From: Alphaproteobacteria bacterium | GTDB lineage: Bacteria > Pseudomonadota > Alphaproteobacteria > Paracaedibacterales > VGCI01 | Length of the DNA: 64,000 nt | Reading direction: 5' to 3' | Assembly (NCBI GenBank): GCA_019746225.1 | Contig: JAIESE010000013.1 | Span: 42,063 to 106,062, forward strand | Shown here: positions 4,214-27,153 of the stretch, in pieces | How the letters are laid out: every line of letters starts with the position of its first letter | How positions within the stretch are numbered: position 1 is the first letter of the stretch | The notes under the pieces: generated by a model | Seen by the model: only the letters and a program-made list of their open reading frames with translations | The model's database searches: none | Told to the model about the DNA's origin: nothing | Translations under genes and position numbers: made by a program

Positions 4214-4540
4214 CTAAGGAAGATCAATATTTGCTTTTAAAGTCCTTTCTTGAATCTTTTGTGTCTTGTTTCCAAAAAACTCCGCAGCCTGTCTCAACGG
4301 TGCATCCGCTAGATGTGCGTATCTTTGCGTCGTTGAGGCTTGGGTGTGTCCTAATAGTTTTCCAACTATACTCAAACTTAAACCACTGGAAACCAGGTGC
4401 GACGCATGGGTGTGACGTAAATCATGAAGACGAACGTTTTGGAGGCCGGCTCTTGTTTGAATGGTCTTCCAGGCTTTTTTAATATCTTGAAGAGATTGTC
4501 CCGCCACTTTACCAGGGAAGAGATATTCTTTGGCAAGAAT
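4214..4540 (-). pseudogene. 3' remnant of a tyrosine recombinase (integrase) gene
   Basis: The translation ILAKEYLFPGKVAGQSLQDIKKAWKTIQTRAGLQNVRLHDLRHTHASHLVSSGLSLSIVGKLLGHTQASTTQRYAHLADAPLRQAAEFFGNK is nearly identical to the C-terminus of the intact integrase at 18080-19267. DNA identity is about 90% by eye. An in-frame TAG sits at the 5' boundary and the N-terminal ~290 codons are missing. Confidence 0.9.
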
Positions 4541-4819: not shown

Positions 4820-7800
4820 TTAAAGAATGTTTTGAAGTTTTGCTTGAATTCTGGTTTTGTGGGAAGATTCTGGAAGACGAGCATTTATCACTTGCAAGGC
4901 TTGATTGAACAGAGCAATGGCTTTTTGATCCAGCTCTCGAGATTCAATAATATTCTTATTTTCTTCAGCACGCTTCGACTTTTTAAGACACAGCTGAGCC
5001 AAATCTTCTAGAATGAGATATTGTTCTGTGTGATCCGCTGCTTGGAATTTTTGTAAAGCCTTAAGCAAATATTTTTCTGCCTCATTAATATTGCCTTCCA
5101 ACAGATAAACTCGTCCTAAACCATAGACCACACGAGCCACTTCCAAATGGTCTCTACCATAATTCCTTTCATAGATGAGCAGGCACTTTTGAAAGAGTTC
5201 ATGAGCTTCTTTGTAGTTCCCAAGGTCTGCCTGAACATTGCCAAGATATACCTTGGCGCGCGCAACTTCGACATAATGATCAGGTAGGTTTTTGCTATAA
5301 ATGGCCAAGCTTTTCTCGAGATACTCCTTTGCGGTTTCATAATCTCCTAATGTTCTATGAACATTTCCTAAATGAGCCAATGACCAAGCAAAGGCAACAT
5401 GATTCACAGGAAGGTGAGCACTGTAGATTTTGAGGCTTTTTTCAAATAATTCTTTTGCTTTTGTAAAGTTGCCCAAATCTCTATTTACATTCCCGAGACG
5501 AGCGTAAATTCTCCCTATCTCAACTTGATTATCTGGCAGGTGCTTTTTGTATAGCTGAAAACTCTTTTCATACAACGCATGAGCTTGCATGTAGTTTCCC
5601 ATATCTTTATTTATATTACCTAAATTTGAGAGAGCCCATGCATAGGGAATGTAATTTTCCGGAAGATGACTTTGATAAATTAACAGACTTTCCTCAAGAA
5701 CTTCTTTCGCTTTGTCATATTCACCCACATTACGATAAATAATACCTAAATGAATTAAAACTTGGGTAATGCCCGTATAGTTTTGTGGAAGATGGTCGCG
5801 GTAAATACGAAGACATGCGTTGAGAATGGATTTAGCTTTTTCATAGTTTTCCAACTCACCCTGAATGATACCCAAATAGCTCATAGCTTTTGCAAGGCCA
5901 AGCTTATTATCAGGAAGATCCCTTTGGTAAATGAGGGTTGCTTCTGTCAGATGGTTTTTTGCTTCTTTAAAACTACCAAGGTCCCAACAAGCATTGGATA
6001 GGTAAACCAACGCTTGTGCAACACGAGACACGTTTGCATATGGTTCTTTATTGAGTTTTGCAAGACTTGTTTCGAGCAGTACTTTCCCGTGTTTATAATT
6101 TCCTAAAGTATAATATAGATTCCCAAGCTCACACTCTATAGAGCCCTCTATCGTAGGTGTTAAAAGGCTCTTATGAGATAAAATTCGCTCATAATGATTT
6201 TTTAGCACCCTCATTTGCTGAAGATCTTCTTTATCTTCAATAACTTGTGAATATTCTTCTAGTCTTTTAGAAATGTATTCAATATTATGATGTTTTTTTT
6301 CCAAATCTAATATTTTTGTCAAATAAGCTAATATAATCTCTTGCGTGCTTCTATGAATGTAATAGCTTGAACCAGATGTTGCTGAGCTGGATAAATCATT
6401 GTTGATAAGAGAATATTTTTTTAAATGATATATGAAATTATCAATAACGACATCACTTTTATACGCGTCTAATAAATCCTTTGAAATATTTTGAGAATCA
6501 ATCAAGCTTATAAGGAGTAAAAGATCGCCAAAATCCTTATGAATATCCATAAGTGACCGTACTGCGGCAACGATAATTCCATAACGAGTCTTAGAATACT
6601 CACTTCTATCTTGTAAGACATTTTTTTGAAGAAGTGAAAAATCTGCATTAGAAACATTTAGATGCTCAAGATACTTAATATAGCTAATGTTTGTTGCTTT
6701 TAAATAATAAGCCGCAATACAAATATCTAAAGGAAAAGGTGGAAGACTCTTTAAAAACGTTATGGTATGTTCTTTTAGAGGAGGTTTAAAGTCTTGTTTG
6801 CTACCTTCTTCCATAACCTTCATAAATAAATCTAACTTTTCATCCTCCTCGAGTTCGTCAACTTGTATGACATGATTGACATGTGTGTTACTTTGAATAT
6901 GAGTATCTCGCGTTGTAATTATTACTTTGCCTTTTCCCCAAAAGGTCGCATCATGTGGAAAATATTTGTGAATATCAGAAAATTTTTCGACGTTATCATA
7001 AAAAAGAAACCAATCAGCCCGAGTCTTTAGACGTTCTCTGACAAATTGGATAAGTTTTTCTTCCTTTTCTGTAGGGTCTTTAATGTTATTTAAAGCAGTA
7101 AATACCTCTTTATCTTCGCGTGTTTTTAAAAGGGCCCCTGCAAGCTTCTCGAAAGAATCTTTGAGACTTTCCATTGATTCTGCATTCAATTCCCATGAGT
7201 TATCATTCTCTTTCTGATCTAAATATTGACGAGCAAGGAAGGTTTTCCCAGCCCCTCCAGGGCCAACAAGAGCAACTGTTTGAATGCCACCTTCCCCCAT
7301 CAGTTTATCGCCTAATAATGACAATAATTTAGGTCGCTGAAGAGTTGATGATAGTGACGCCTTCCTCGTAGTTAACGGTGTAAGATATCTATTTTTACCC
7401 TCAAACAAGAGAAACCCAGCTCCTACCAAGCTCAAACTTAACAAACATGCTGCAGTTAGATATCTCTTCCTAGGTCCCCAGAAAAAACCATTTTTAGGTG
7501 AGGGTTCCTCTTTCTTTGCACCATTATCCTTTGGTTTTGAACGTGACGGGAACATTTGTGGCTCCTCTAAAGGAACATCATTTGCGGCAAAAGGCTTAAA
7601 CTCATGAATATAAGGATCGATATTTATTAAAGGATAAATTTTTCTTACAAGGTCAAAAAAGGAGAAAAAGTAATTAGATTGATCCAGAAAATGAAAGGGC
7701 CCCCTTTCATAGGATCTTTTTGAAAATGTCCGCTTTCCGTCTTCTAAAACTAGGTAATATACCCGTTGCATATCATTTTGAGTGGACGAAGTTAAAAATC

Positions 7801-8377
7801 TTTTTTCAGGGACAATTTGAGGATCATTCAAATACTTCTCTGTAAGGATACAAAGGATATTCTCTTTTGAATAAGAGTTGATAACCTTTTCAAGGTTAAT
7901 GAGATTTTTAAGGAGAGGATTTTCTTTTTGAAAAATTTCCATCCCAGCCAAACTTAAATGATATTTTATTTGGTCGAGGATGGCCCCCTTCTCTTTGTTT
8001 AAACTTGGATCATACAGGAGGACCAAAAAATCTTTTGGATTTATATGAGATATTTTTTTTAAGGTGTTCTCAAAATGAAAATTTGCCATTAGCTGTGAAT
8101 AATACGGCTTGAAATGTACGTATTGATCACAATTTTCTACAAAATCAATGATGCCTTCTCGAGAGTTGCACTCCAGCTTAAGCATTATGTTACGTATATG
8201 AGTATCAACTGTTCTGGAAGAGATGTTCAGAAAGAAGGATATCTTTTTAGATGCTCTGCCATTGAGTAAGCACGAAATAATATCTATTTCTCTTTGAGTG
8301 AAATTTATCCCTCGCATTGTTTGAAGATGCACAGAATAAAACTTATTCAACAATGTATAATTATCTTTGATTTTCAA
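4820..8377 (-). CDS. STAND regulator, copy A: N-terminal LuxR/GerE HTH, one hydrophobic TM-like helix, NB-ARC P-loop NTPase, C-terminal TPR array (1185 aa)
   Basis: HTH: FTQREIDIISCLLNGRASKKISFFLNISSRTVDTHIRNIMLKL. Hydrophobic helix: YLTAACLLSLSLVGAGFLLF (aa 306-325). Walker A: GPGGAGKT. Walker B-like: WFLFYDNVE. RNBS-B-like: GKVIITTRD. GLPL-like: LPPFPLDICIAAYYL. About ten 42-aa TPRs follow. The listed start is TTG, so the true start is uncertain (alternative Met21 at 8317). Confidence 0.9.
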   Translation of the reverse strand: MKIKDNYTLLNKFYSVHLQTMRGINFTQREIDIISCLLNGRASKKISFFLNISSRTVDTHIRNIMLKLECNSREGIIDFVENCDQYVHFKPYYSQLMANFHFENTLKKISHINPKDFLVLLYDPSLNKEKGAILDQIKYHLSLAGMEIFQKENPLLKNLINLEKVINSYSKENILCILTEKYLNDPQIVPEKRFLTSSTQNDMQRVYYLVLEDGKRTFSKRSYERGPFHFLDQSNYFFSFFDLVRKIYPLINIDPYIHEFKPFAANDVPLEEPQMFPSRSKPKDNGAKKEEPSPKNGFFWGPRKRYLTAACLLSLSLVGAGFLLFEGKNRYLTPLTTRKASLSSTLQRPKLLSLLGDKLMGEGGIQTVALVGPGGAGKTFLARQYLDQKENDNSWELNAESMESLKDSFEKLAGALLKTREDKEVFTALNNIKDPTEKEEKLIQFVRERLKTRADWFLFYDNVEKFSDIHKYFPHDATFWGKGKVIITTRDTHIQSNTHVNHVIQVDELEEDEKLDLFMKVMEEGSKQDFKPPLKEHTITFLKSLPPFPLDICIAAYYLKATNISYIKYLEHLNVSNADFSLLQKNVLQDRSEYSKTRYGIIVAAVRSLMDIHKDFGDLLLLISLIDSQNISKDLLDAYKSDVVIDNFIYHLKKYSLINNDLSSSATSGSSYYIHRSTQEIILAYLTKILDLEKKHHNIEYISKRLEEYSQVIEDKEDLQQMRVLKNHYERILSHKSLLTPTIEGSIECELGNLYYTLGNYKHGKVLLETSLAKLNKEPYANVSRVAQALVYLSNACWDLGSFKEAKNHLTEATLIYQRDLPDNKLGLAKAMSYLGIIQGELENYEKAKSILNACLRIYRDHLPQNYTGITQVLIHLGIIYRNVGEYDKAKEVLEESLLIYQSHLPENYIPYAWALSNLGNINKDMGNYMQAHALYEKSFQLYKKHLPDNQVEIGRIYARLGNVNRDLGNFTKAKELFEKSLKIYSAHLPVNHVAFAWSLAHLGNVHRTLGDYETAKEYLEKSLAIYSKNLPDHYVEVARAKVYLGNVQADLGNYKEAHELFQKCLLIYERNYGRDHLEVARVVYGLGRVYLLEGNINEAEKYLLKALQKFQAADHTEQYLILEDLAQLCLKKSKRAEENKNIIESRELDQKAIALFNQALQVINARLPESSHKTRIQAKLQNIL

Positions 8378-8589
8378 AGCCTTGCGCGCAACTCTAAATT
8401 GTATGGTTGGTCTTTGTTTATTGATTCAAACTCTATACAGTTTCTACCTGGTGGTCTACGTAATTTTTACATAGATGAAGTCAAATACGTTTTTTTTGGG
8501 TTAGATTATTTGTTTGTTACTAACGTAAATTAAGAAATGTAAGGTATGCAGTTATTTTACGAGCCAACTTGAATAAAAAGGAGAAAGTC

Positions 8590-11500
8590 ATGAAAAGAAA
8601 AGGTTTATTAATAAAAAGCTTGTTATTAAGTACCACGATTATGTGTGGACTCACTATGGGTGCACAACAGATACAAGAAGGCCTTGTTTATTATGGTGGG
8701 GATGGATTAACAGCACACCGAGAACAATTTACTATGGTAGGTAATCAAAGAGTGGAGCAACCCCATGGAGAATTGCCAGAACATAAAGGGTGTACGGTCA
8801 ACTATGTAGAAGCATTCTATAAGAACCAAGCCCCTATACCTTTGGCGAGACAGGGTGAGAATGCAGGAGGGTATAGATACGATGGATTTATAACAGATAA
8901 TTTCCACCCGACAATTCGAGCACAGCATCTCCTTTACAGCGACGGAGTAGATATCTATGAACCTCATGCTACGCAAGAATTGTGGACTCGTGGACAGGGA
9001 ACTCCTGGACAAGAGGATGTTCGTATTTTTATATCATCTCATAAAGATAGCCTTAAGTTGAACTGGACGCCAGGTATACGCATTGATACCCCCAATGGTA
9101 AATTACCAGCTGGCCTTTATCAATTTAGTTCATCAGAAAATTTAACTGAAGAAGTGCCTTACCATCAGAATAATGTTAACGGCGTAAGAACAAATTATTT
9201 TCGTAAGGAAAAATGGTCAAAAGTAGGAAGTGAGCAATCTTTTTACATAAACATGCCCTCGCATCACCTTGTCAGTGTTCCTGGAATGCCAGAATATATT
9301 CTTAATGAATTTCCTGAAGCGCCAAAAGATTTTGTTGATTTGAAAATGATAATTGATGCATTTGAACAGGCAGTGGCTAATAACCTAAATTTGCAACGTC
9401 CTGAGCAACGAATCATTTTTATTGGGGATGCCCGAGTCGGGAAAGACGCTCTTGCACATTATTATGCAGGTTCTGATTTATCGGTTGCGCTCAATAGGGG
9501 TTTTAGACCAGCGCGGGTTGAATTACAAGGCAATCCTCAATTAGGCTCATTAAGTGTTGTGTCTGGTATTATTGGCTCCCGAAATGTTGGCTCTTGGTTT
9601 GATCAAGCAGGCCAACGTGTCATTTGGACAACGCCTGGAGCTAATGGAATTGAAACCCCTTTGAATGATATTTTGAATGTTAAATCTCTTAAAACATTAT
9701 TAACAAAAAACAACCCATCAAAATACGTTTTAACCATTAAAGAGTCAGATTTATTTGAAGCAAATTATAAAAATCTAACTGAGGTTTTAATAAGGTTATC
9801 GCGCATGTTTGGGTATCAAGTACGGGAAGATGGTACCGTTGATATGGGGATAAATAATGATTTAAAAAATGCGCTTTCACTTGTCGTATCTCAAACTGAT
9901 CGTATGAATCAAGGTGACTTGGTTGATGGAGTCTATTTAGACCAAAATGGAGTTCAGCAGCCAGTCAAAGGCATATTACGAAATATTTTAGAAGTCATGC
10001 AAAGTGCACCTTTGAACTATGATGCTGGCGGCATGGGCATCTTGGAATATTTAGTAAATCATCCTGAACGTGTTTCTTTCTTCTCTTTGCCAAATCTCGC
10101 CAATGCACTCTATGAACCTAGAGATCCCCTCAACACAAGAGAATCCATTCAACAGAGTATAGATGTAGCAAATGGAAACGAGTCGCGTTATATGGCAGTC
10201 CAAAACCCAGCTGATATTCATATTGTTTTTAAAGAAGAATCAAATACATTCATTAAACAAGTATTGGATAAATTAAATAATCAGGTGACAAAATACTTAA
10301 GTGAGGACGCAGTTGAAACAATATGGAATCTTTGCAATCAAAAAATACTTGGGCATGAAGGAACCGTAGATGAACTTCGTGATAAGCTTCTAGCTTTCTC
10401 TAATAAGTTTAACAACGCTAACACGCAACCTCTAGACGATTTTGTGCGGGACATTGAGAGTCTAATAGGTACGAATGGAATCACAAGGAATATAAATCAT
10501 ATACGCTATTTACAAGAAAAGTTGGGTATAAATACCAATTATGCTCGCGATCAGTGGCTTGCTCCGTTGATGTCTGTCATGAACAACATTCGTTACTTAA
10601 GCTCAAAAAATGTAGTCGATGGAAGTCAAAATTTAGATACATTAAATGGAATTAACTATATTTTTGATAGCCAAAATAAAGAATTAACGCTTGTTGGCTA
10701 CTTACTTGGCATGACCGATGTGAAGAAGTTTGTAGAAAATAATCTTACGCGTAGTGGAATTACAGGCCTAACTCCGAATACTGAAATACGAAAACTCAAT
10801 CTCCTATCTCTACGAAATTTGTTAGCAGATGGTAGTTTAAGTTTGAAAGAAGCAACGGTCGTTGGAATAACACCCGAAATAGTTCAGACAACCCAGTCTG
10901 TCACGCTCGATCTTTCTGCTAGAGCCCATCCATCTATGAGTAAGGCTGCCAATGATCAAGTTGGAACGCCAGGTCTTCCCGGAAGAAACGGTGGAAGCTT
11001 AGTCTTATTAGCAAATAAATTTACTGATGCCTATAAAGTAGCCCACCCACAAAATCCAACCACATTTGAAATTAAGAAAGACGGGGGGTCGGGACAAAAC
11101 GGCCAAGAAGGGGCAATAGCACATCGGTGCCTACACCAGCGGATGGTACTACGGGAGATTGGAACGAGCATAGTTCTACGCCGGTTTCCGTAGGTCGAGG
11201 AGTAGATGATCCTGAAAAAAATAGATATTATGTGTCTGCATTGAAAGTGAAGGGTGGAACTGACGAAGATAGAAAGGGAAATCCTATTCCATGGTATAAA
11301 GCCCATTTGAGCATTGATTATACTAAGAAAGAGTATAAACAGGCAGGCATAAAAGGGACTAAAGGTAGCAATGGTAAGAATGGCGGAGCCAAAGGACTAA
11401 AAGGGCATCAAGGTCTTTTAGTTGTGGATTGTCCCAAAATAAGCCCTATCGTCGCAAGCAATCCACCCCAGGATGGGTCTGATGGAAGTGGGGGTAGCGG

Positions 11501-11882
11501 TAGCGCAGGAGGGCTCGGAGGACGTGTTAATTATAAAATTACGTACAATTATCGGCCAGGTAAATATGATCATAATGGTACAGAAATTTGGGCTAATGCT
11601 GAGGATGGAACAAGCCATTTAGGAGATGGGGGTAGGTATAGAGAGGATGGTCCTCGTCTTCTCGACAATGAGCGTGGACCTTTAGGTGATCCTGGGGATG
11701 CTGGGACTTCAGGAGCCAATACTGCTGGTCAAGTTGCTCCATCCCCCCAAATTACCGCTGACCAATTGGAAACATTAAAGACCAATAAGCTACAACTTTA
11801 TAGCACCCAATATTATGCACTTGCCGTAGATCCTGTTAAACAAAAGCTTCTCGGTAAATTTACAAACATTCCGGCCCAATAA
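8590..11882 (+). pseudogene. Signal-peptide P-loop-GTPase-like / glycine-rich (collagen-like) protein, copy A, split by a -1 frameshift
   Basis: Two overlapping ORFs, 8569-11193 (frame 1) and 11127-11882 (frame 3), together are colinear with the intact paralog 27154-30033. ATG at 8590 follows AAGGAG. Signal peptide: MKRKGLLIKSLLLSTTIMCGLTMGA. The Walker A is degenerate: GDARVGKD versus GRTGSGKS in copy B. Gly-rich tracts include GTPGLPGRNGG, DGGSGQNGQEG, GIKGTKGSNGKNGGAKGLKGHQG and DGSDGSGGSGSAGGLGG. Confidence 0.75.
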
Positions 11883-11883
11883 G

Positions 11884-11912
11884 AAGGGGGGGCTATACCC
11901 CCCTTACTTTTA
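11884..11912 (+). terminator. GC stem-loop with a short T run between the GTPase-like gene and the CdiA-like gene
   Basis: AAGGGGGG-gctata-CCCCCCTT is followed by ACTTTTAT. This may be a terminator or attenuator. Confidence 0.4.
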
Positions 11913-11939
11913 TGCAGCTAAATTTTTAAGGAGGAAAGA

Positions 11940-14900
11940 ATGAAGTACGTAGTATCTAATAACTCAGTTCACAAGGTATTCACTTTGAAAGGATGCGTTA
12001 CAAGAATTGTCATTCTTTCTCAAATAAGCTCCCATATTGCTGGAGCTATGGAAGAAGCCTTAACGGATAATCCTGTTAAGGTGTCTTCATCTTCCACTCT
12101 CGCGTATGGATTTTCTGCTTTTCCAACCAACAAGTACATTGAGACTCAACAGCAAGCTCTTAATTATTTTGGGTCACTTGATTTAACTCCAAAAGATATA
12201 CTTATATTTCCTGCGCCAATAGCACAAGCTCTGATTGTCAATCGGATTGAAAGTGGACAACCATCTAATATTGCGGGTTCAATAAAATCAGATGAATTAT
12301 CCTCCATGATGTTTAAAAATCCAAAAGGGTTTGTTATAAACAACCCTTTAATTAGCAATGTTTTAGACCTGGATTTCGTAGCTCAAGCCGATGAGTATTT
12401 TGATAACTATTCGAAAGAACGAGGTGCGATAGAAATAAAAAGCACTTCTCTTTCAAGTGGCGAACGTTTAGAAAACTTACGCCTTAAGGCTGAGTCTATC
12501 TGCATTCAAGAATCTGTTCTAGATCCATTAAATTCACTATCTATTGAGTTGCTAAAGGGAGATAAGGATCGGCTTTTGTCTAATGCCGATAAAAAACAAG
12601 CATTATACATAAATCCAAACACGATCTTGCGGGCGGCAAAACTATCAATTCATTCCCACAATCAGTTGCCCTTAATAATCGAAGGTGTTTTACAGAGTAC
12701 CGGCGGAAATATTGAGATCTTTTCAGATGGAGATATTGTGCTTCATAACGTTTCTTGTAGTGGAAAGCTGATTATTCATACTAATGGAAGGGTTATTTTT
12801 GAAAATGATGCTGCCGTAATTGGTGGTGTGGAAATACATGCTTTATCTTTCGAGAACAAAGGACGCCTCATAACTAAGGGTAATATGGATTTTGGAAAAA
12901 CCCAAATCATCAACAAAGGTCTTCTGCAGACTGAAACAGACATTTCTTCTGAGACATTACATAATAGTAAATCTGGTCATATAATCGCCAGAACCCTTGA
13001 TAATCTTATGTCTATTTTGCCCCATAATGAAGGAACGATAGAATTTTTAGATGCATGTACATTAAATGGTGAACATTCGCTCGATCTGAAAGGAACTTTG
13101 GTCGTCAACGGCCTTCTAGATTGTCAATTATCCGGTGTTGACTCCACGCTTACTTTAAGAGAGGGCAGTCAAGTAAAGGCGTTAAAAGGTGCGACTGTCA
13201 AACTTCATACTCTCACTAATCATGGAAAGTTGAACATTACCGGAGAAAATCTAGGATTATATCTCACATGTTTAAATAACTTTGGGGATATTGAATCAGT
13301 AAACGGCACTTACGGTGAGGTATTCAAGTTAGTAAATAGCGCCACCATCCGCACGCTTGGCCATTCTACGCTTAACTGTACAACCGTTGAAAATAAAGAA
13401 TCCGGCAGGTTTTATACGGCAGGGGTTCATCATGTTAATGTGACGGGAAGTTATCTTGACTCAGGTTATGTTTATTCTCCCACATTATTTTTGCTACAAG
13501 GGGCTTATCTTCAATTTCTTCCTCATCACCAATCATTTATTGCTAATGGGGTTATTAAAGCGACGCAGAAGTTAACGGTTGCTTCAGAAGCAATTTTGAA
13601 CATGAGACACCGTCTGCAATTTTACTCTGATAACACGATTGTCCATCAAGGTGTAAATAATCAGCTCCAAGAATATCACAAGTCTGATGAGGATGCTCTT
13701 TATGACACTTACTATTTGCTCAACCCAGATTTCATTGCGCCCAGATGGGAGCGGAATGTTTTTAAAGCTTACGTTAATACGTTTTTAACAGGGCATTGGG
13801 GGGACTATTTAAGAAATTTGCTTAAAGAACCTTATGGCATTGTAACAATGGCCCGGGGCGATCTCACACGACGGGGCAATGACAATATCCAAGCGGGAGG
13901 TTCACGCTATACAACTTTTGGTCAATTTAAAGGGAGCAAATCTTATATAAAAACGGGATATTTCCCAGATAATCATGCCCAAATACAAGCAGATAGTGGC
14001 AACTTTTCAAATGTTACCTTAAATGCTCTTGGGGGAAAGGTTGCTGTGAAGTTAGATAAGGATATGGAAGCAAAGAAATTTCACGCTCAAGCAAAGACTA
14101 TTGCTGAGTTAAACGTAAGGGGCTCGATGAGTCTTAAAGATGCATCCATTGCAGCCAGACTAGTCAGTTTAGAGGCTCAAAAAGATATGCAGATGAACAC
14201 TGTCACGTTACAAGCCCAAGATCATATCCATGCTTCGACTCCCGGTAAATTTCAAGCTTCAGATTTACAATTGAAAGGCGGTGCAACGACACACATAGAA
14301 GGGGATCAAGGTATCCACATACAAGGATTGCAGAATCAAAACAAAACAAGATTGAAATCATCTAAGCAAGTAATATTAGACAAAGAGGCTAAAGGAGGTG
14401 AGTTAAGCATTGAAACAACTGAAAACTTTACCAATAACGCTTCTGTTGAAGTTGATAAATTTTCCCAGAGCAGTCTCCATTTTCAAAATAATAAAAAGGT
14501 TGTAGCGAAAGGTACCCTGAAATCAAAAAGCCAAACCTATGGCGATACAGAAGAAGCTATGTTGGAAGGTTCTGAAGTAGTGCTTGATGCGCCTTTAACA
14601 AGAGGAGGATTTAAGGGAATAGTTAAAGCGGATATGGCTGAAATTCTCCTAAAAGATATGCAGCTGCAAGAACTTTTACGGCACATAGATATTCAAAACA
14701 CATTAACCTACACAGTTGATGATCATCTGGTAGTTGATGAGGATATTATCATAAAATGCAAGATGGTATTGCACGCAGTAGGTCTAGAAAATAAGTCAAG
14801 GATTACAGCAGATAAGAACTTTTTGTCATTTATAAAAAGAAATATCTTGAATGGTGGTCTCTTTCTTGGTCAAGGTTCCGCATACTTTGAAGCCGGAGGT

Positions 14901-17900
14901 GCTTTTACTAACACTGCCCAGTTAAAAGCAAAAGAAGGTTTAGGGGTCAAAGCGGCCCAAATATTAAATAAAGGTGACGAAAAGCTTCCTGCGGTAATGG
15001 AAGGCCAGGATATTTCGTTAGAATCTACCCAAGGCAGCATTGAAAGCCAGTACGGACAATTTAGGGCAAAACAATCATTTCAAGCTCGATCGGCTCGCGA
15101 TACAACTCTCGATGCTTCAGAAGTTGACGCTGGTCAATCCATAAACATTACCTCGGCACGCGATACTTTGATCCAATCCGTTGTTAAGAGACTAAAGTCT
15201 GGTGAGGGAAACTATAAAGATATTGCTGTCCGTTCATTGCTTAATTCTGGCGGATCAATAGCTCTTTTATCGGGTAACAATACAACTCTTATTGGGGCAA
15301 GATTAAAGGCAGCGCTTGATATTGGAGTTGCTGCACAGAATGTTTATAGCTTAGCTTTAGGATTAGAAGAACAAGAAACACACGCTATTACTGACGGTTC
15401 TCAGACAAAGTATAAGCTGACAAATGATGTCAGTCAGATACAGGCAGGTGGAAATGTTGGTATTCATGCAAAAGGCATGAACTACCACCAGGCAACAGAT
15501 ATTGTCGCACAAAATTTGTCATTGCTGGGTCAAGATGTTGTGATCGATGACGTTACGGATAAGTTTTACTTATCGGAAACCACAAAGCATGAAGGTGGAT
15601 TGTTCGGTCAAAATACTGAACAACAGATGCAACGGCAAGAAAGTACATCAAGAGGTGCTAATTTCAACGTTTTTGAAAGAATAGGAGTGAAGGCATTAAA
15701 TAGTATTTCTGTAAAAAATATAAAATGCCAAGCTCAAGAGACCATTCTAGATTCTCCAGAAGTTAAAATTTTGTTGGGGCGTAACGAAATGCAATCCGCA
15801 TCAACAGAAAAGAGCTCCAATGTTTTATGGGTGCGAACCACACAATCCTCCGATGAAAAATTAGATCATCAGGCTTCTGAGTTTAAGGGAGCCGTTAAAA
15901 TCAATGCTAAAAACGCAATGATAGAAAGAGTTGCAGGCCAAACTCTGGGTTTTATGAAGACCTTGTCGGGAGATATACAAAATCTATCCGAATCAGAAGT
16001 CGTTGATTACTATAATAGAAAATCGAAAACAGTCGAGGGGCCATCTCAAGCCTTCGCCATGGTAATTGCTCTAGCTGTCTCAATGACAGGTGTTGGCAGT
16101 GCTTTGGGTGCAGCGCTCGTTGGCACAACATTGTCAACTACTCTCGCGGGAACAATGGTATCCGCTGCTGTGACAACTCTATGTAGTCAAGCAGCGGTAC
16201 AGCTTATAGCTGCCAAAGGCAATATCATACAAGCAGCAGAAGCCATGGCAAATACTAAGGTTCTTGAATCTATGGCGCTGAGTGCGATAACTGCAGGGAT
16301 TACAAGTCAACTTTGTGACGTATTGCATCTTCAGTTAGACCCCATAAAAAAGAATTTATTTGACAATATAAAACAGAAAGGTGTTGAGAATGTAGTAAAT
16401 CTAGGGGCTAATATTGTTCAAGGGGGAGATGCCGATATAGCCCTTCGCAATGCTGCAGTTTCGACAGTAGTTGGGGCTTTGAGTGCATCAGCCGCGTATG
16501 AAATTGGAAATGGGTATTCGCATAACCATGTTGATCCAGTAACTCATAAATTATTGCATGCTGCTTTGGGTGCAGCTTCAGGAGCTCTACAAGGAGATGA
16601 CCCCGCTAAAGGAGCCCTAACTGGAGCCATAAGCGCTACGGTAGCTGTGACTGTTACAGATATTATTCAAAAGGACTCAAAATCAGTTGCCAAAAGGGCT
16701 CTAGATAGAGCTGAAAGAGAAAATATAGAAACAACGCCTGAGAATATGCGCGCTCTTATTCGTCAAGAAATACAAATGACCGGGGCTGGTGGAAAAATTA
16801 CAAGCGCTATTACGGCAATGCTTTTAAAACAGGATATGAATATAGCGATCGGAGCCTCTACGAATGCAATAGAAAATAATTGTCTGGAATCAATGGCTGC
16901 GCTTGCACTCCACGAGGCCAATGTCATGGCTGAAGCTAGACAAAGTGAAGGTACTGGGAAAACGACTCTATTTGAGAAAGACCGAGAGGATACTGAATGG
17001 AGTGGAGAAATTCCTTCTAAAGCACATGTTGGCATTGAGGGGGAAAAGTCTTATGTCGCTCATTATATAGCGGGCAAAAAAGCGCAATATGAGCATGATG
17101 GAAAATCGTGGGGTGAAAAAGAAATAGCACAAGCCCGTAAGGAGGCAGAAACTGAATTAAAAGGCATTGAGCAAGTTACATGGCATGAAGATGTTTTGTT
17201 AGGAGGGGCAAATATTGCGCGCAAAGCCGGTGCACATGGTTTAAAAGCAGCGGGAACCTACACTGCAGAAAAAATTCGAGAATTTGCCAAAGGGAAAGTT
17301 CAAGAGAAGGTTCAGGAGATATTAGTAGGTGAAAGTTGCTTAGATGCTGGCCAGTTTGTTGAAAGGGAAGCCCACAACCTTGGTGCAAGTGATAAAATGG
17401 CTAAAGGGCTCGGGGCAGCGACAGAACAGGGTTGTGAGCTATTCGTTTCCAATGCAATAAGCAAAGCAGCTTCGGGAGCCCGCTCATCCTCATCAGATAT
17501 CCCTCATATAGAGGCGATTTCATCAGATCATGATCAAGTTGCGCATAAAGGTTATTACGGACGAAAAGCAGATAGGGCTGAAAAACATAAATGGGATAAG
17601 GCGGTAAATGAGGCTCAACCAGCAGTATACAGCAAACATCAAAAAGCGACAACGCGAGAAGAAGCTGAAAGATTGGCACGTCCTGGAAAACCATCACAAT
17701 ATTTTCCAGGTCAAAATGTAGAAGATTTGGAAAGGGAAGCTTTAAAAAGGGGAGCAAAACTTCCTGATCTTAAAGACAAAGGAAGCACTTATGTTGAATA
17801 TGCTTTTCCTTATGAGATTGGAGTTGCTAATGGAAAACCTACTAAGAGCATACGGGTTGAAATGACAAATTCTAGTGTTCCCGAGTTTCATGGACATCCC

Positions 17901-17918
17901 AGACCTGAAAAAAAATAA
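11940..17918 (+). CDS. TpsA/CdiA-like filamentous-haemagglutinin-family exoprotein with an ENN-delimited C-terminal toxin region (1992 aa)
   Basis: An AAGGAGG RBS is present. The TPS-domain-like segment is ALIVNRIESGQPSNIAGSIKSD..MFKNPKGFVINNP (compare ILNRVTG..S.I.G and the NPNGI motifs). A long beta-helix-type repeat region follows. A Gly/Ala-rich helical DUF637-like segment is GPSQAFAMVIALAVSMTGVGSALGAALVG... A VENN-like motif, STNAIENN, lies at nt 16866-16880 and is followed by a 345-aa C-terminal region. Confidence 0.85.
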   Translation: MKYVVSNNSVHKVFTLKGCVTRIVILSQISSHIAGAMEEALTDNPVKVSSSSTLAYGFSAFPTNKYIETQQQALNYFGSLDLTPKDILIFPAPIAQALIVNRIESGQPSNIAGSIKSDELSSMMFKNPKGFVINNPLISNVLDLDFVAQADEYFDNYSKERGAIEIKSTSLSSGERLENLRLKAESICIQESVLDPLNSLSIELLKGDKDRLLSNADKKQALYINPNTILRAAKLSIHSHNQLPLIIEGVLQSTGGNIEIFSDGDIVLHNVSCSGKLIIHTNGRVIFENDAAVIGGVEIHALSFENKGRLITKGNMDFGKTQIINKGLLQTETDISSETLHNSKSGHIIARTLDNLMSILPHNEGTIEFLDACTLNGEHSLDLKGTLVVNGLLDCQLSGVDSTLTLREGSQVKALKGATVKLHTLTNHGKLNITGENLGLYLTCLNNFGDIESVNGTYGEVFKLVNSATIRTLGHSTLNCTTVENKESGRFYTAGVHHVNVTGSYLDSGYVYSPTLFLLQGAYLQFLPHHQSFIANGVIKATQKLTVASEAILNMRHRLQFYSDNTIVHQGVNNQLQEYHKSDEDALYDTYYLLNPDFIAPRWERNVFKAYVNTFLTGHWGDYLRNLLKEPYGIVTMARGDLTRRGNDNIQAGGSRYTTFGQFKGSKSYIKTGYFPDNHAQIQADSGNFSNVTLNALGGKVAVKLDKDMEAKKFHAQAKTIAELNVRGSMSLKDASIAARLVSLEAQKDMQMNTVTLQAQDHIHASTPGKFQASDLQLKGGATTHIEGDQGIHIQGLQNQNKTRLKSSKQVILDKEAKGGELSIETTENFTNNASVEVDKFSQSSLHFQNNKKVVAKGTLKSKSQTYGDTEEAMLEGSEVVLDAPLTRGGFKGIVKADMAEILLKDMQLQELLRHIDIQNTLTYTVDDHLVVDEDIIIKCKMVLHAVGLENKSRITADKNFLSFIKRNILNGGLFLGQGSAYFEAGGAFTNTAQLKAKEGLGVKAAQILNKGDEKLPAVMEGQDISLESTQGSIESQYGQFRAKQSFQARSARDTTLDASEVDAGQSINITSARDTLIQSVVKRLKSGEGNYKDIAVRSLLNSGGSIALLSGNNTTLIGARLKAALDIGVAAQNVYSLALGLEEQETHAITDGSQTKYKLTNDVSQIQAGGNVGIHAKGMNYHQATDIVAQNLSLLGQDVVIDDVTDKFYLSETTKHEGGLFGQNTEQQMQRQESTSRGANFNVFERIGVKALNSISVKNIKCQAQETILDSPEVKILLGRNEMQSASTEKSSNVLWVRTTQSSDEKLDHQASEFKGAVKINAKNAMIERVAGQTLGFMKTLSGDIQNLSESEVVDYYNRKSKTVEGPSQAFAMVIALAVSMTGVGSALGAALVGTTLSTTLAGTMVSAAVTTLCSQAAVQLIAAKGNIIQAAEAMANTKVLESMALSAITAGITSQLCDVLHLQLDPIKKNLFDNIKQKGVENVVNLGANIVQGGDADIALRNAAVSTVVGALSASAAYEIGNGYSHNHVDPVTHKLLHAALGAASGALQGDDPAKGALTGAISATVAVTVTDIIQKDSKSVAKRALDRAERENIETTPENMRALIRQEIQMTGAGGKITSAITAMLLKQDMNIAIGASTNAIENNCLESMAALALHEANVMAEARQSEGTGKTTLFEKDREDTEWSGEIPSKAHVGIEGEKSYVAHYIAGKKAQYEHDGKSWGEKEIAQARKEAETELKGIEQVTWHEDVLLGGANIARKAGAHGLKAAGTYTAEKIREFAKGKVQEKVQEILVGESCLDAGQFVEREAHNLGASDKMAKGLGAATEQGCELFVSNAISKAASGARSSSSDIPHIEAISSDHDQVAHKGYYGRKADRAEKHKWDKAVNEAQPAVYSKHQKATTREEAERLARPGKPSQYFPGQNVEDLEREALKRGAKLPDLKDKGSTYVEYAFPYEIGVANGKPTKSIRVEMTNSSVPEFHGHPRPEKK

Positions 17919-18079
17919 GGTTGCTATTCTAATTCATCCTAATGATAGAGATGATGAAACATAATGGATTAAGGCCATACATACTCTTCTTATTTCAACG
18001 GCTGAAAAGCTTCAGGCGCTCAATGCTCATGCTTTCTTTACCTCATCAAGCCAACACCTTATTATTTTGATAAACTTTA

Positions 18080-19267
18080 TTAAGAGGACGCTCTACCTGC
18101 TTTATTACTTCTGGAACTGATTGCTTGCGCCTTATTTCCAAAAAACTCCGCAGCCTGTCTCAACGGTGCATCCGCTAGATGTGCATATCTTTGTGTCGTT
18201 GAGGCTTGGGTATGTCCTAGTAGTTTCCCAACAATACTCAAACTTAACCCACTGGAAACCAGGTGCGAAGCATGGGTGTGTCGTAAATCATGAAGACGAA
18301 CGTTTTGTAGGCCGGCCTTTGTTTGAATAGTCTTCCAGGCTTTTTTAATATCTTGGAGGGACTTTCCATGAACTCTTCCAGGGAACAAATGGTCATCCCT
18401 GCTTATTTCTTTCATGCCCTTTAAGAGTGTAATAACTTGAGAAGAAAGGGGGAGATGTTCCATACGATTTTGTTTGGTTGTATGGGCCGGCTTCGTCCAA
18501 ATGCCTTTCTCCAAATCGAATTGATCCCATGTAGCACTTAAGACTTCTCCGCGCCTGGAGCCTGTGAGCACAAGCAACCAAATGGCGTTAGCAACATTTT
18601 GATTGTGATAGGATTCAAGTGAGCCCCATAATTTTTCGAGCTCAACTTCATCAAGCCAGCGATTGCGTTTTTGTTCCTGGTATTTTTGAACACCATTCAC
18701 AGGATTATCCGTGCGCCATTTCCATTGGATAGCGATATTGAGCATTTTGCTTAATAATGCCCGAACACGATTAGCCATGTAGGGGGTGTCCTTTAGCTCA
18801 TGATGTAAATGTTGAATATCTTGTGCTGTGAGTTCCTCAACTTTTTTGTCAGCCCAACGTTTAAGAATAATTCCTTCAAGCATCTTTTCGTCTTCCCGAT
18901 AGCTCTTTGGTCTTTTGTTGGTTTTGGCATAGAACTCTAAATATTCCTTGGCAAGATCCGCGAATGATGGTTTGATTCTCCTCGCCTGTACCTCTTGTGA
19001 TGGATCGCCCCCTTTGGCTACATCACCTAAAAGTCCTTTGGCAATTTCACGAGCTTGCTCTGCGGTAACCGCTCCATGAACGCCGATCTTTTTGCGACGT
19101 GTCCGGAAAAATTCATTACGATATTGCACAAAATATGTCTTGCGACCTGTTGGGTAAACCCTTACACCAAACCCCCTGATCTCAGAATCCCAAACAAGCA
19201 GTTCCTCACTCTTATCTGGCTTAATGCTTTCAACAACCCACTTGGTTAGCTTCCTGCCGTCTTTCAT
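18080..19267 (-). CDS. int: P4-type tyrosine integrase (395 aa)
   Basis: The N-terminal arm-binding-type segment is GFGVRVYPTGRKTYFVQYR. The catalytic-region motifs are LHDLRHTHASHL (HxxR) and LLGHTQASTTQRYAHL (catalytic Tyr). Confidence 0.95.
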   Translation of the reverse strand: MKDGRKLTKWVVESIKPDKSEELLVWDSEIRGFGVRVYPTGRKTYFVQYRNEFFRTRRKKIGVHGAVTAEQAREIAKGLLGDVAKGGDPSQEVQARRIKPSFADLAKEYLEFYAKTNKRPKSYREDEKMLEGIILKRWADKKVEELTAQDIQHLHHELKDTPYMANRVRALLSKMLNIAIQWKWRTDNPVNGVQKYQEQKRNRWLDEVELEKLWGSLESYHNQNVANAIWLLVLTGSRRGEVLSATWDQFDLEKGIWTKPAHTTKQNRMEHLPLSSQVITLLKGMKEISRDDHLFPGRVHGKSLQDIKKAWKTIQTKAGLQNVRLHDLRHTHASHLVSSGLSLSIVGKLLGHTQASTTQRYAHLADAPLRQAAEFFGNKAQAISSRSNKAGRASS

Positions 19268-23520: not shown

Positions 23521-26500
23521 TCACACTTGGACCTTAGCTAGCTTTTCTTTAATTTTTTTTATATGGGCAGAATCTTCTGGGAAATGAGCTTTTACAATAT
23601 CATAGGCTTGTTTTAGGTAGTTATAGGCTTGATCTCTAAAGAGACCTTGAGTGTTTACAGTCAATGAAGCCTTTTTGAAATAGAGGTCGCCTAGGCTTTC
23701 AAGAGCTGCATATTTTTCAGGATGGTTGTTATTTTGATAAATCCCTAAAGCTTTAGATAGGAAATTATTAGCGTTATCCAATTCTCCTTCCATAAGATAG
23801 ACTCGACCAAGATCCAATATAATATGCGCTAAGAATATATTGGATTCACCATGGAGACTTTGATATACAACTAAAGCTTCTTTAAGAAGGGTTTTTGCTG
23901 TTATATAATTCCCTATTTCTCCCTCAAAGATACCTAAATTCACCTTGGCATTCGCAATTCTCATCGTATTTTCAGGGCAATATGCCTTATACATTTCTAG
24001 GGCGTTTTTAAGCAGGGGTTTAGCTTTTTCAAACTTTCCCATTTTTCGGTAAATGTTTCCTAGATTTGTTAAAGCAAAAGCTACCGCCGAATTATTCTCA
24101 TATTTATCCTTTTTATAGATTACAAGTGACTCTTCGAGTAATTTTGCAGCTTCCTCATAGTTGCCGAGGTCACCATGAGTTATCCCCAAAAGAACTAGAA
24201 TATGAGCAACCTTGAAATGAACTTCAGAAAAATTTCGTTTGGAAATCTCAAGGCTTTGTTCTAACAGATCTCGTGCTTTCTTATGGTTTCCAAGATAAGA
24301 ATGCACAATCGCTAAATGTGATAATGGTGTTAATGGTTCAGATAATAAGAAATCTTCTTTGGGAGATTGATGCTTGTTTATATCAATACACATTTCAAGT
24401 AGATTTTTGGCCTGACCATAATCGCCTAAATCTCTATAAACATTCCCCAAATAAAAGAGGGACCGACTATATTCTAATTGATTGTTGGGGAGATGGTGTT
24501 TATAAAGTGAAATGCTTTTCTCGAGGCTATCTTTAGCCGCTACATAATTACCTAAGGTCCGGTATGTATTTCCTAAAAAAGACAAGGTTCTGGCAAGAAG
24601 CATATCATCTTTATTTTTGAGAGAATTCAACGTAGCGATATTTTTTTCTAAATATATTCTAGAGTTTATATAATCGTTTAAAATAAAGTACATATATCCT
24701 AAATTTGTGGCCAACGTCGCCTTATTAGATTCATTTAATAAGTGATTATGGGTTAGAAATTTTTCTAAATGTTCTTTAAAGCGTCTTATCTTTATCGTAT
24801 TTCCCTTTTCGATTATATCATTTGTATGTACTTCTAAAACATGAGAAATATTTTTCAAAATTTCATTGTTGCTATCCAGTCTAACTCTTCTTGAAATATA
24901 GGCTAAAATGATCTCTTGTATCGAACGGTGAAACGATAATGTGGCTTCACTAGAATCAGAAGATGTATCTGTAACAAGAGAGTACTTTTTTAAATTATAA
25001 ATGAAATTATCAACAATCGTATGGTCTTTGTATTTTACTAACAAGTCTCTAGGTATATTTTGGGAATCAATAAGACTGACCAACAAGAGGAGATCTCTAA
25101 AATCGTTGTTTGTATCTATAAGTTTGTTAAGAGACAACGCAACGATCCCATATCGCGTCTTGGTGTAATCCCCTGCTTCCTTTAAAAGGGATTCTTGGAC
25201 TATTGTGAAATCTTGATTATCGTGAGTTAGGTTATCAAGATATTCTGAGTAGGTAATATTTGTGGTTTTTAAATAATAAGCCGCAATGGATACATCAAGA
25301 GGAAATGGGGGAAGCTTTTCAAGGAATATCTTTGCTTCTTCTGTCTGTGCGTGTGAAAAAACGTTTTCCTTTCCCCCACTCATAATCTTAGAAAAAAGAG
25401 CCAGTTTTTGCTGAGGGGTAAGTTCTTCGATTTGGAGTGTGCTACCAATATGCTTATTGTTTTGAATGTTGCTGTCCCGTGTTGCAAGAATAACTTTCCC
25501 CTGGCCCCACGTGGCAGAATCTTGAGGAAAGTGTGTTTGAATATCTGAAAACTTTTCCACGTTGTCAAAGATAAGAACCCAATCTGAATGTGACCTCAAG
25601 CGCTCTTTTACGAATTGGGTGATCCTGTCTTCTCTTTTATTCATAGGCTTTATATTTTGAATCTCTTTTAGGAGTTTTTGATCTTCATCAGTCTGAGCGA
25701 GAGCTTGGGATAAGGCTTCAAATGATGAATTAAGCATCTCATGAGTTTCTGCATTGATTTCCCAAATAACATTAGCTTTTTGTGCATGGGCAAATTGCCT
25801 TGCTAGGGTCGTCTTTCCTGCTCCTCCCGGTGCTATGAGGGCGATGGTTTGTATGCCCTTTTGTTCCGTAAGCTTCTTCTCTATCTTGGCAAGAAGCTCT
25901 GGTCGTGAAAGAAAAGATGACTCTGATGGAATAGCTAAATCTGAACGAATAACCGTTTGTCTTTGAGCTGTATAATAGTAGCCCCATTTATAGATCAGTA
26001 AGCCAGTACATGATAACATTATCAGAACAAGCAACCCAAAGAGAGCAAGCCAACTTCTCCGTTTCGACAAACTCTTGATACTCTTCTCTTCTTTTGTAGG
26101 AGTTTGAAGAAAGGAAGTTTTACCTTTCTGATCAAGCTTTGTGATGAGATCATCGAAATTAAAACCTGGAAAGAGGACCTTTAAAATCTCAATCAATGAG
26201 GCTAAATATGTCTTTTGGTCCAAGGAGAGAAGAACTCTTTTCTTTTTATCAATCACAAACAAAAGGGCATTGGTTGAACTTTCATTTTGGTCTTGTGACT
26301 CCTGAGATGCCTTTATACCCTCATTTTTTTCAAGTTCTTCTCTAAGGATGTTTGGAATAACATAAAGAGCATACCTTGAAGTGAGAGATTGTATCTCTTT
26401 CATAAGAGAAGACATTGTACATGGAATACAACGAGTCTCAAGTGTAACAATCACCCCAGCAGCTTTGAGAGGCTGTTCCAGTTGAGAAATGTCAGAGCTT

Positions 26501-26862: not shown

Positions 26863-27153
26863 ATATAAATGATCTACTCAATATAATATAAATTAAAAGT
26901 TCCATTATGTTCCAAAGTGCCTTTATCCTGAATTATTAGCCAAAACCTTAGATAATATGTAAGAACATAGCCGGTTATTTTTAAGGGTATTTTATACCCT
27001 GAGGCCTCCTCAGAGGAGATATTCCGGATAAACTTCAGACAACTCCTCACATAGGTTTGTAATGCTTCTTGTGCTTCATTGCAACTCACTTGCTACCTTT
27101 GCATGAAAAACAAGTAGCTAAACTGACTTAACTTACATAGGAAAGGAAATGCT

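Follow-up and report, generated by a model that had tools for sequence, protein, structure and literature searches.

A CdiA-like polymorphic toxin gene in a conserved regulator-GTPase-toxin module without an adjacent transporter gene

INTRODUCTION

Contact-dependent inhibition (CDI) and two-partner secretion (TPS) systems are defined by a passenger protein plus a dedicated outer membrane transporter. Here, we describe a gene in a 64,000-nucleotide (nt) stretch of an alphaproteobacterial genome assembly (contig JAIESE010000013.1; the whole stretch is termed the window, and coordinates without a locus name refer to it). The gene encodes a CdiA-like toxin and belongs to a module composed of a regulator gene, a GTPase gene, and the toxin gene, without a transporter gene in cis; in this strain, an immunity gene is missing as well. 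An earlier annotation (the sequence-only reading) had pointed to a CdiA/TpsA-like exoprotein lacking both of these companions and had offered several explanations for their absence.

The window toxin resembles CdiA of the cdiBAI loci (type Vb secretion) in that it is very large and combines a TPS domain, a β-helix, filamentous hemagglutinin (FHA)-2-type repeats, a DUF637 region, a VENN-type boundary motif (AIENN), and an exchangeable tip. The placement of an immunity gene directly after the toxin gene is likewise shared, although this applies to relatives of the window toxin. Unlike in cdiBAI, no cdiB gene lies beside the toxin gene in seven loci, no cdiI gene is present in the window copy, and the upstream position is held by a regulator of the STAND type (signal transduction ATPases with numerous domains) and an exported dynamin-like GTPase, which we refer to as the partner. 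The window protein further differs from CdiA in its TPS domain, which is a marginal Pfam match and has been deleted from one ortholog, and in its weakly hydrophobic signal peptide.

Departures from the canonical gene order have been described. In Burkholderia bcpAIOB and other noncanonical TPS/CDI operons, gene order and additional genes (BcpO, CdiC, and HMW1C) vary, and accessory proteins can be needed (PMC5422565). Those operons keep a TpsB gene, however, and their listed accessories are not GTPases, whereas here the candidate accessory is a dynamin/atlastin-like protein of about 1,100 amino acids (aa) and the locus has no transporter gene. It has also been documented that tpsA and tpsB can be unlinked and that some TpsB proteins serve more than one TpsA (PMC5422565). 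The window toxin gene is similar to such orphan tpsA genes in having no adjoining TpsB gene but differs from them in that the unlinked state is clade-wide and another gene is conserved in the usual place of the transporter. The partner can be compared with LeoABC of enterotoxigenic Escherichia coli (ETEC) and IniA/IniC of Mycobacterium, as it is a large GTPase with a helical stalk that has BDLP and IniA among its fold matches. Bacterial dynamin-like proteins of the LeoABC/IniA type are encoded near virulence or toxin functions and have been linked to the release of toxins or vesicles (PMC4159319, PMC10240201). In contrast to these proteins, the partner has a signal peptide, an N-terminal all-β domain, a Gly-rich β domain, and a degenerate Walker A motif (GDARVGKD), and no membrane-binding paddle was identified.

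RESULTS

Domain organization of the toxin

The toxin gene is an intact, stop-free open reading frame (ORF) of 5,979 nt, whose start codon follows a GGAGG Shine-Dalgarno sequence after 6 nt. Start codon and Shine-Dalgarno sequence are both kept at the loci of two orthologs, L006 and L007. A search covering 5.8 billion proteins showed that the protein is rare. Apart from the window protein itself (P0001, annotated as metagenome-assembled genome Alphaproteobacteria bacterium), it returned the L006 ortholog P0002 (68% identity), the L007 ortholog P0003 (52%, partial), and one distant DUF637 protein (P0004). Scans of public genomes and metagenomes added distant homologs with 24 to 26% identity over about 800 aa at L009 (Alphaproteobacteria bacterium 41-28; L011 and L013 stem from the same organism and were not counted separately), L010, and L012, as well as the start of a homolog at L008. 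The toxin clade is small and was found only in metagenome-assembled genomes labeled Alphaproteobacteria. A literature search for Paracaedibacter together with TPS or hemagglutinin found nothing.

The protein is organized in the following order: a signal peptide-like N terminus, a diverged TPS region, a β-helical shaft, FHA-2-type repeats, a DUF637 region, the AIENN boundary, and an exchangeable tip (Table 1). Its earlier identification as a CdiA/TpsA-like polymorphic toxin is upheld by matches to DUF637 (56.8 bits), TIGR01901 (31.0 bits), and Fil_haemagg_2 (37.8 bits) and by the matches of a family profile to TPS domains.

For the TPS-like segment, the NCBIfam model TIGR01901 (adhes_NPXG) scored above its cutoff of 29.1 bits at aa 75 to 141, whereas the Pfam TPS model PF05860 stayed below its cutoff (25.1 versus 33.5 bits, aa 70 to 135). 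The L009 homolog cleared PF05860 at 49 bits; the L010 homolog had no Pfam TPS match at an E value of ≤0.001. In an alignment of six sequences including the window toxin, the latter is in register across the TPS region, with LIVNRIESGQPSNIAGSI...FKNPKGFVINNP placed against LIYNRVYSKKPTRLSGAI...FANPRGIILENP. A family profile was built from this alignment and searched against PDB sequences. It matched solved TPS domains only, namely, those of FHA (1RWR; E value, 8.8e-8), HxuA (7.7e-6), HMW1 (0.011), and EtpA (0.05). Because the profile matched nothing else, we read the region, at the level of sequence, as a diverged TPS domain, and the earlier reservation that it might not model as such was not borne out.

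The sequence-only reading had seen no obvious extended signal peptide at the N terminus. This holds insofar as the hydrophobic core is weak and no extended signal peptide region (ESPR) was matched. It does not hold for a signal peptide as such, since residues 15 to 36 (TLKGCVTRIVILSQISSHIAGA) line up residue for residue with the signal peptide of L009, L010, and L012 (SLRKxMAYxMIFSLLWQNCLWA); the signal peptides of the L009 and L010 toxin homologs are unmistakable. The small-x-A cleavage motif is kept at this N terminus in all three close orthologs. Hydropathy is modest (best 12-residue window, 1.56) and close to that of neighboring putative signal peptides, a measure that does not discriminate here, as the median of background ORFs exceeds that of the known signal peptides of this set. 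The N terminus is probably a Sec signal peptide, judging from the aligned homologs. As a candidate ESPR, the segment HKVFTLKGCVTRIVILSQIS was considered by eye and rejected: Pfam gave no match on three N-terminal peptides even at an E value of ≤10. At L007 (9261 to 14849), the true start of the toxin gene is an upstream ATG after the conserved GGAGG, which was missed by the gene caller; the encoded ortholog (P0003) retains the 38 conserved residues of the N terminus and has an LHH nuclease at its C terminus.

A long β-helical region had been proposed to follow. An AlphaFold2 (AF2) model of aa 1 to 430, computed with a two-sequence alignment, placed a confident β-helix at aa 220 to 350 (predicted local distance difference test score [pLDDT], >85), and the Fil_haemagg_2 match agrees with the same proposal further along the chain. 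The DUF637-like segment was recovered as PF04830. The PT-VENN model (PF04829) remained under its cutoff (14.6 versus 20.3 bits), and its match ends exactly at AIENN (aa 1643 to 1647), where the VENN-like motif had been placed; an identical NAIENNC motif in the L010 toxin, which also has DUF637 and Fil_haemagg_2 regions, clears PT-VENN at 20.5 bits. The C terminus is variable, as had been expected. The window and L006 toxins are collinear, with 74 to 80% identity up to the boundary, as far as AIENNC.E.M.ALAL.E, and are unrelated beyond it, while tips of relatives carry an LHH nuclease (P0003) or a Tox-URI2 domain (P0004). Such an exchangeable tip after AIENN reads as a polymorphic toxin signature. 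The 345-aa tip of the window toxin had no match in Pfam, NCBIfam, or PDB sequences. A word-indexed search with a 350-aa tip query also returned nothing; this is a weak negative, as the parent protein was missed too.

The toxin gene is well preserved. Relative to the L006 ortholog, the ratio of nonsynonymous to synonymous substitution rates (dN/dS) was 0.04 to 0.39 along the collinear core (residues 1 to 1642), with 0.30 in the TPS-like region and 0.04 to 0.22 over the rest of the shaft. Higher values (0.45 to 0.64) occurred only past AIENN, where the two sequences are no longer homologous. In six assemblies of the strain, the gene is identical except for one single nucleotide polymorphism (position 13016). 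The collinear part of the toxin is under purifying selection.

A conserved module with a GTPase-like partner

The toxin gene belongs to a conserved module comprising a divergent regulator gene, the gene of an exported GTPase partner, a hairpin, the toxin gene, and, in relatives, an immunity gene. We compared seven distinct loci (the window, L006, L007, L008, L009, L010, and L012). In every one of them, down to a toxin identity of 24%, the toxin gene is immediately preceded by a gene of the partner family, and L008 has three tandem partner copies ahead of its toxin homolog. Because the toxin served as the query that retrieved L010, L012, and the L009 organism, the presence of the partner there was unselected. 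A divergent LuxR-NB-ARC-TPR regulator precedes the partner in each of the five loci with a readable upstream side (the window, L006, L007, L009, and L010); the ORF upstream of the partner in L012 had no Pfam match. The outer flanking genes vary between the loci. Analysis of these neighborhoods had been suggested as a check on whether the GTPase-like gene takes the place of cdiB elsewhere, and cdiB adjoined the toxin gene in none of them. The hairpin between the partner and toxin genes is kept in L006 and L007, and L010 has a different, stronger hairpin at the equivalent place. Its occurrence at this position in both clades suggests attenuated cotranscription.

The partner gene is a single gene for 1,097 aa. 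In the window, it is split into two ORFs (8569 to 11193 and 11127 to 11882) by a 1-bp deletion in a run of five G residues (G4 versus G5); it is intact in three other assemblies of the strain (L001, L002, and L004). Across the six assemblies, three lesions were seen: the 1-bp deletion of the window, one of 74 bp at 9515 to 9588 (L005), and one of 32 bp upstream of the start at 8512 to 8543 (L003). Assembly noise could account for these three independent indels, as could phase variation or selection against the partner. In two of the six assemblies, the partner gene is disrupted while the toxin gene is intact. Compared with L006, the partner has a dN/dS of 0.14, which indicates purifying selection despite a degenerate Walker A motif. 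This motif, GDARVGKD, is found in all three orthologs of the first module and departs from the G1 consensus GxxxxGK[ST]; intact versions are present in a second partner paralog of the window (GRTGSGKST), in the L010 partner (GPSGSGKT), and in the family consensus.

The sequence-only reading had held that the upstream gene does not encode an Omp85/POTRA barrel. No Pfam family, ShlB and POTRA included, matched the partner at an E value of ≤1. An AF2 model computed from a 57-sequence alignment (pLDDT, 83; predicted template modeling score, 0.74) shows a signal helix, a β domain (aa 28 to 222), a G domain (246 to 500), a helical stalk (549 to 670), a β- and Gly-rich domain (675 to 1030), and a C-terminal helix. 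In Foldseek searches, the model matched RNF112 (E value, 7.9e-6), atlastin-1 (2.2e-5), a bacterial dynamin pair (5.6e-5), mitofusin-1 (1.1e-4), and Irgb6 and IniA (about 1e-3), and BDLP and IRG were also among the fold matches (E values of 8e-6 to 1e-3). Matches in BFVD were atlastin-, GBP-, and dynamin-like proteins of giant viruses. Every one of the 50 fold matches listed is a P-loop NTPase or a member of the dynamin superfamily, with no Omp85 protein among the matches listed. The C-terminal domain has polar strands (IDYTKKEYKQ and RVNYKITYNY), and the last helix of the protein is followed by ...FTNIPAQ, without a terminal aromatic β-signal. On the basis of the predicted fold, we are confident that the partner is a soluble dynamin/atlastin-like GTPase with no Omp85 barrel, in line with the earlier assignment.

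An exhaustive profile search delineated a partner family of 600 representative clusters, 48 of which scored below 1e-30. The family consensus comprises a signal peptide, an N-terminal domain marked by Y.PH.TQE.W, a G domain of the TRAFAC type (GxTGxGKST, WDCPGFGD, and TK), a helical region, and Gly-rich repeats. Some members add jacalin, lipase, ankyrin, or TIR domains; a C-terminal lipase occurs in a family protein annotated Candidatus Paracaedibacter. At L009 (9315 to 13894), a partner homolog without a G domain has a long C-terminal extension with GTNMECFFNAAG and proline-rich repeats, which resembles, by eye only, a cysteine protease or OTU-like module.

The window also holds a second copy of the module that lacks a toxin gene (Table 1). 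Its partner paralog shares 32 to 34% identity with the partners of L008, L010, and L012, which makes it closer to them than is the partner of the first module. The second module is followed by a gene for a secreted-looking protein of 240 aa (region of both, 23521 to 30829), and the signal peptide DNA of this gene repeats that of the paralog (27163 to 27208 and 30137 to 30182).

Search for a transporter gene in cis

Window ORFs of at least 500 aa encode two STAND regulators, the two partners, the toxin, UvrB, and one 543-aa protein, and none of them matched ShlB or POTRA. No TpsB gene was found among the genes called in the 10 kb beyond either end of the window (about 84 kb in total), which agrees with the earlier statement that no transporter gene is present in cis. 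The flanks of about 10 kb at L006, L007, L009, and L010 likewise contained no ShlB or POTRA match. The 543-aa ORF (42149 to 43780, minus strand) has an N-terminal hydrophobic segment, no Pfam match, and no β-barrel character by eye; its segment LPKDLIKIIA is F-box-like, again by eye only.

The missing immunity gene and the integrase-bearing junction

The spacer between the toxin gene and the stop of the convergent integrase gene, which the sequence-only reading had described as free of ORFs, holds no credible immunity ORF (Table 1). In relatives, immunity genes were recognized. An Imm30 gene (65 bits) overlaps the toxin stop in L010, and at L006, two toxin genes have small ORFs (67 and 95 aa) behind them; no relatives of these L006 ORFs were found anywhere in the window. 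A 266-nt direct repeat (4259 to 4524 and 18125 to 18390; 89% identical) is an internal piece of a tyrosine integrase gene and brackets the regulator, partner, and toxin genes. Its flanks showed no homology, no att-like repeat, and no nearby tRNA. Attachment sites for the integrase were sought and discarded, as the only long repeat is this internal integrase fragment with nonhomologous flanks. Since the module is bracketed by integrase copies with nonhomologous flanks, the locus lies in a rearranged, integrase-associated region, and we infer that a rearrangement there is the simplest explanation of the missing immunity gene. No empty site or alternative junction was found in other metagenomes, where all contigs have the same arrangement. 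Beside the integrase remnant, an ORF of 309 aa (2583 to 3512, plus strand) has a weak, sub-cutoff match to HEPN/RES N-terminal domain 1 (22.4 bits); it may be part of an older island.

Further genes in and around the window

Just upstream of window position 1 (L014, 1 to 4900), genes for Asn_synthase-like, Transglut_core3, and ABC exporter proteins are accompanied by two tiny ORFs (40 and 47 aa), in an arrangement like that of a lasso peptide biosynthesis cluster. Another LuxR-NB-ARC-TPR regulator gene adjoins it. At the other side (L016, 1 to 10000, past the right end, and window positions 60100 to 61443), there are genes for Rap1a-domain (a type VI immunity family), patatin, PLD-like, Sel1 repeat, and phage lysozyme proteins. 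They lie near a Porin_4 gene and uvrB and hint at other antagonism or host interaction functions. Between 52000 and 60000, a segment including uvrB and a tRNA-Ser gene has a G+C content of 0.43 to 0.51, versus about 0.37 elsewhere in the window.

TABLE 1 Coordinates of the toxin gene, its domains, and other features of the window
Feature	Coordinates	Strand	Details
CdiA/TpsA-like polymorphic toxin gene	11940..17918	+	1,992 aa; ORF, family profile, and ortholog evidence
Shine-Dalgarno sequence GGAGG of the toxin gene	11930..11934	+	Read from the sequence; also in L006 and L007
Probable weak Sec signal peptide, N-terminal 36 aa	11940..12047	+	K12/K17/R22, core IVILSQISSHI, cleavage motif AGA/ME (cleavage at the slash); kept in three orthologs
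Diverged TPS domain	12147..12929	+	Core motif LIVNRIESGQPSNIAGSI...FKNPKGFVINNP at 12162-12362
Hemagglutinin (FHA-2-type) repeats	14940..16139	+	Fil_haemagg_2, 37.8 bits, E value 2.8e-9, four stretches, aa 1001-1400; cutoff 22
DUF637 pretoxin region	16155..16622	+	PF04830, 56.8 bits, aa 1406-1561
AIENN motif (VENN equivalent), shaft/tip boundary	16866..16880	+	aa 1643-1647; orthologs diverge just after
Orphan C-terminal region, presumed entry and toxin domains	16881..17915	+	345 aa; no family match
Partner gene, signal peptide-bearing dynamin/atlastin-like GTPase	8590..11882	+	1,097 aa; Gly-rich β domain; split in the window at ~11109
GC-rich hairpin and T-rich tract, terminator-/attenuator-like	11884..11905	+	Between partner and toxin genes; terminator-like scan; -18.2 kcal/mol
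LuxR(GerE)-NB-ARC-TPR STAND-type regulator, divergent from the toxin operon	4820..8377	-	Pfam GerE, NB-ARC, TPR_12
Spacer where an immunity gene is expected	17919..18079		161 bp; 42-aa ORF and tail of a 29-aa ORF, both without Shine-Dalgarno sequence
Intact gene of a P4-type tyrosine integrase, oriented toward the toxin gene	18080..19267	-	Pfam Phage_integrase, Arm-DNA-bind_3, Phage_int_M; includes the right repeat copy
Tyrosine integrase gene remnant	4214..4507	-	97-aa product; Phage_integrase match; overlaps the left repeat copy
Second, toxin-less module copy	23521..30033		STAND regulator 23521-26862 (-) and 959-aa partner paralog 27154-30033 (+)

DISCUSSION

We favor the reading that the gene encodes a functional type Vb (TpsA family), CdiA-like polymorphic toxin whose transporter gene is unlinked, and as a whole we hold it with about even confidence. 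On this reading, the STAND regulator would turn on the divergent partner-toxin operon, and the hairpin would reduce read-through into the toxin gene. Sec would carry the toxin over the inner membrane. Passage of the outer membrane would then use an unlinked Omp85/TpsB transporter, possibly one that serves several TpsA proteins; the TPS domain that the toxin keeps argues for this route. That such an Omp85/TpsB partner is encoded elsewhere in the genome is, from the sequence evidence, an even bet. Transporter and immunity genes located elsewhere had been among the explanations of the sequence-only reading, and this is the one that leads here. The tip would be delivered into a neighboring cell. 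The GTPase partner would act as a coregulated accessory factor or a cosecreted effector and not as a pore. The immunity gene would be missing through a downstream rearrangement at the integrase-bearing junction, and the tip would be either harmless to self or neutralized from elsewhere in the genome.

Several points weigh against this explanation. No TpsB gene was seen at any of the seven toxin loci, and for CDI systems it would be unusual if the whole clade had its transporter gene unlinked. The signal peptide has a weakly hydrophobic core, and taken alone, the window toxin matches TPS models marginally. In the AF2 model, aa 1 to 160 have a pLDDT of <50, and the top Foldseek matches, which include the TPS structures of EtpA, FHA, HMW1, HxuA, and HpmA, are mixed with unrelated β-helix proteins, none of them being significant. 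Moreover, the L007 ortholog lacks the entire TPS segment (window aa 40 to 212), yet it is an intact ORF of 1,855 aa with a nuclease tip; this loss makes TpsB-dependent export in that subclade hard to reconcile. Finally, every assembly of the strain shares the same junction; the immunity gene may have been lost or displaced, or it may never have been there.

An unlikely alternative is that the partner and the toxin form a host-directed effector pair. The bacterium would be an intracellular symbiont of a protist, the GTPase and the giant filamentous protein would act on the eukaryotic host, and no immunity protein would be needed. The best structural relatives of the partner, eukaryotic and giant virus proteins of the atlastin, GBP, IRG, and dynamin types, are consistent with this idea, as are the partner family members with ankyrin, TIR, and lipase domains (one of them annotated Candidatus Paracaedibacter) and the neighborhood with its Sel1, patatin, and PLD-like proteins. 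Moreover, the tip contains no known domain of antibacterial toxins and is not followed by an immunity ORF. The sequence-only reading had named a non-self target, such as a host or a competitor, as one way in which the toxin would pose no risk to self; this may apply to the tip, which has no detectable homolog. However, homologs carry nuclease-type tips (LHH and Tox-URI2) and Imm30, and small ORFs follow both L006 toxin genes, which is a signature of self-protection. In addition, nothing at the locus shows a eukaryotic target, and the lifestyle itself is inferred.

We regard it as rather improbable that export depends on the partner and is independent of TpsB, with an obligatory exported GTPase that replaces or bypasses Omp85, for example, by membrane remodeling or vesicle release. 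The sequence-only reading had raised the related possibility that export may use the upstream protein. What supports this possibility, in a real though indirect way, is the constant order of partner and toxin genes in the seven loci, kept to 24% identity despite changing flanks. To this are added the absence of TpsB in cis at all of them, the degeneration of the TPS domain in the window and L006 and its deletion in L007, and the purifying selection on the partner. A loose precedent is LeoA of ETEC: this dynamin-like GTPase, whose gene lies on a pathogenicity island, increases toxin release, potentially via vesicles (PMC4159319). The partner, however, is apparently a soluble dynamin-like GTPase without a membrane barrel or POTRA domain, and a GTPase behind a signal peptide would lack nucleotide in the periplasm. 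Most of its 600-cluster family occurs without such toxins, as do the second copy in the window and tandem triplicates, and the members with lipase, TIR, ankyrin, or jacalin domains are effector-like themselves. Disruption of the partner gene beside an intact toxin gene in two of the six strain assemblies speaks against an obligatory role as well, and shared ancestry of the loci could account for part of the synteny. Worded as a general claim, that the GTPase is a previously unrecognized, obligatory component of TpsA/CdiA systems which replaces the Omp85 transporter or works beside it, the proposal appears to us just as doubtful.

A decaying remnant, as the sequence-only reading had also envisaged, that is, a CDI system which lost its transporter and immunity genes in island rearrangements, is very unlikely: the frameshifted partner gene of the window, the degenerate TPS domain, and the missing immunity gene beside an integrase, with an integrase remnant upstream, would fit it, but the 1,992-codon ORF is intact and selectively constrained over its collinear core, its Shine-Dalgarno sequence and start are kept across species, the architecture without TpsB is maintained in three subclade members and four distant loci, and of the five other assemblies, four are free of the partner frameshift, while L005 has its different 74-bp deletion.

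The preferred reading of a CdiA-like toxin with an unlinked transporter gene bears on a clade that has no adjacent transporter gene throughout. Either a transporter can be stably unlinked and shared across the lineage, or these toxins need a different helper. In both cases, the locus provides a concrete pairing of a toxin and a GTPase and reveals a large, uncharacterized family of signal peptide-bearing large GTPases. If the transporter is encoded elsewhere in the genome, what remains is a CDI-type toxin that is ordinary except for its atypical organization and the loss of its immunity gene. If the GTPase instead proved obligatory, the clade would use a new export or delivery route for giant filamentous toxins, and the wider GTPase family (about 600 clusters, some of which include lipase, TIR, ankyrin, or jacalin modules) would represent a new class of secreted GTPase scaffolds.

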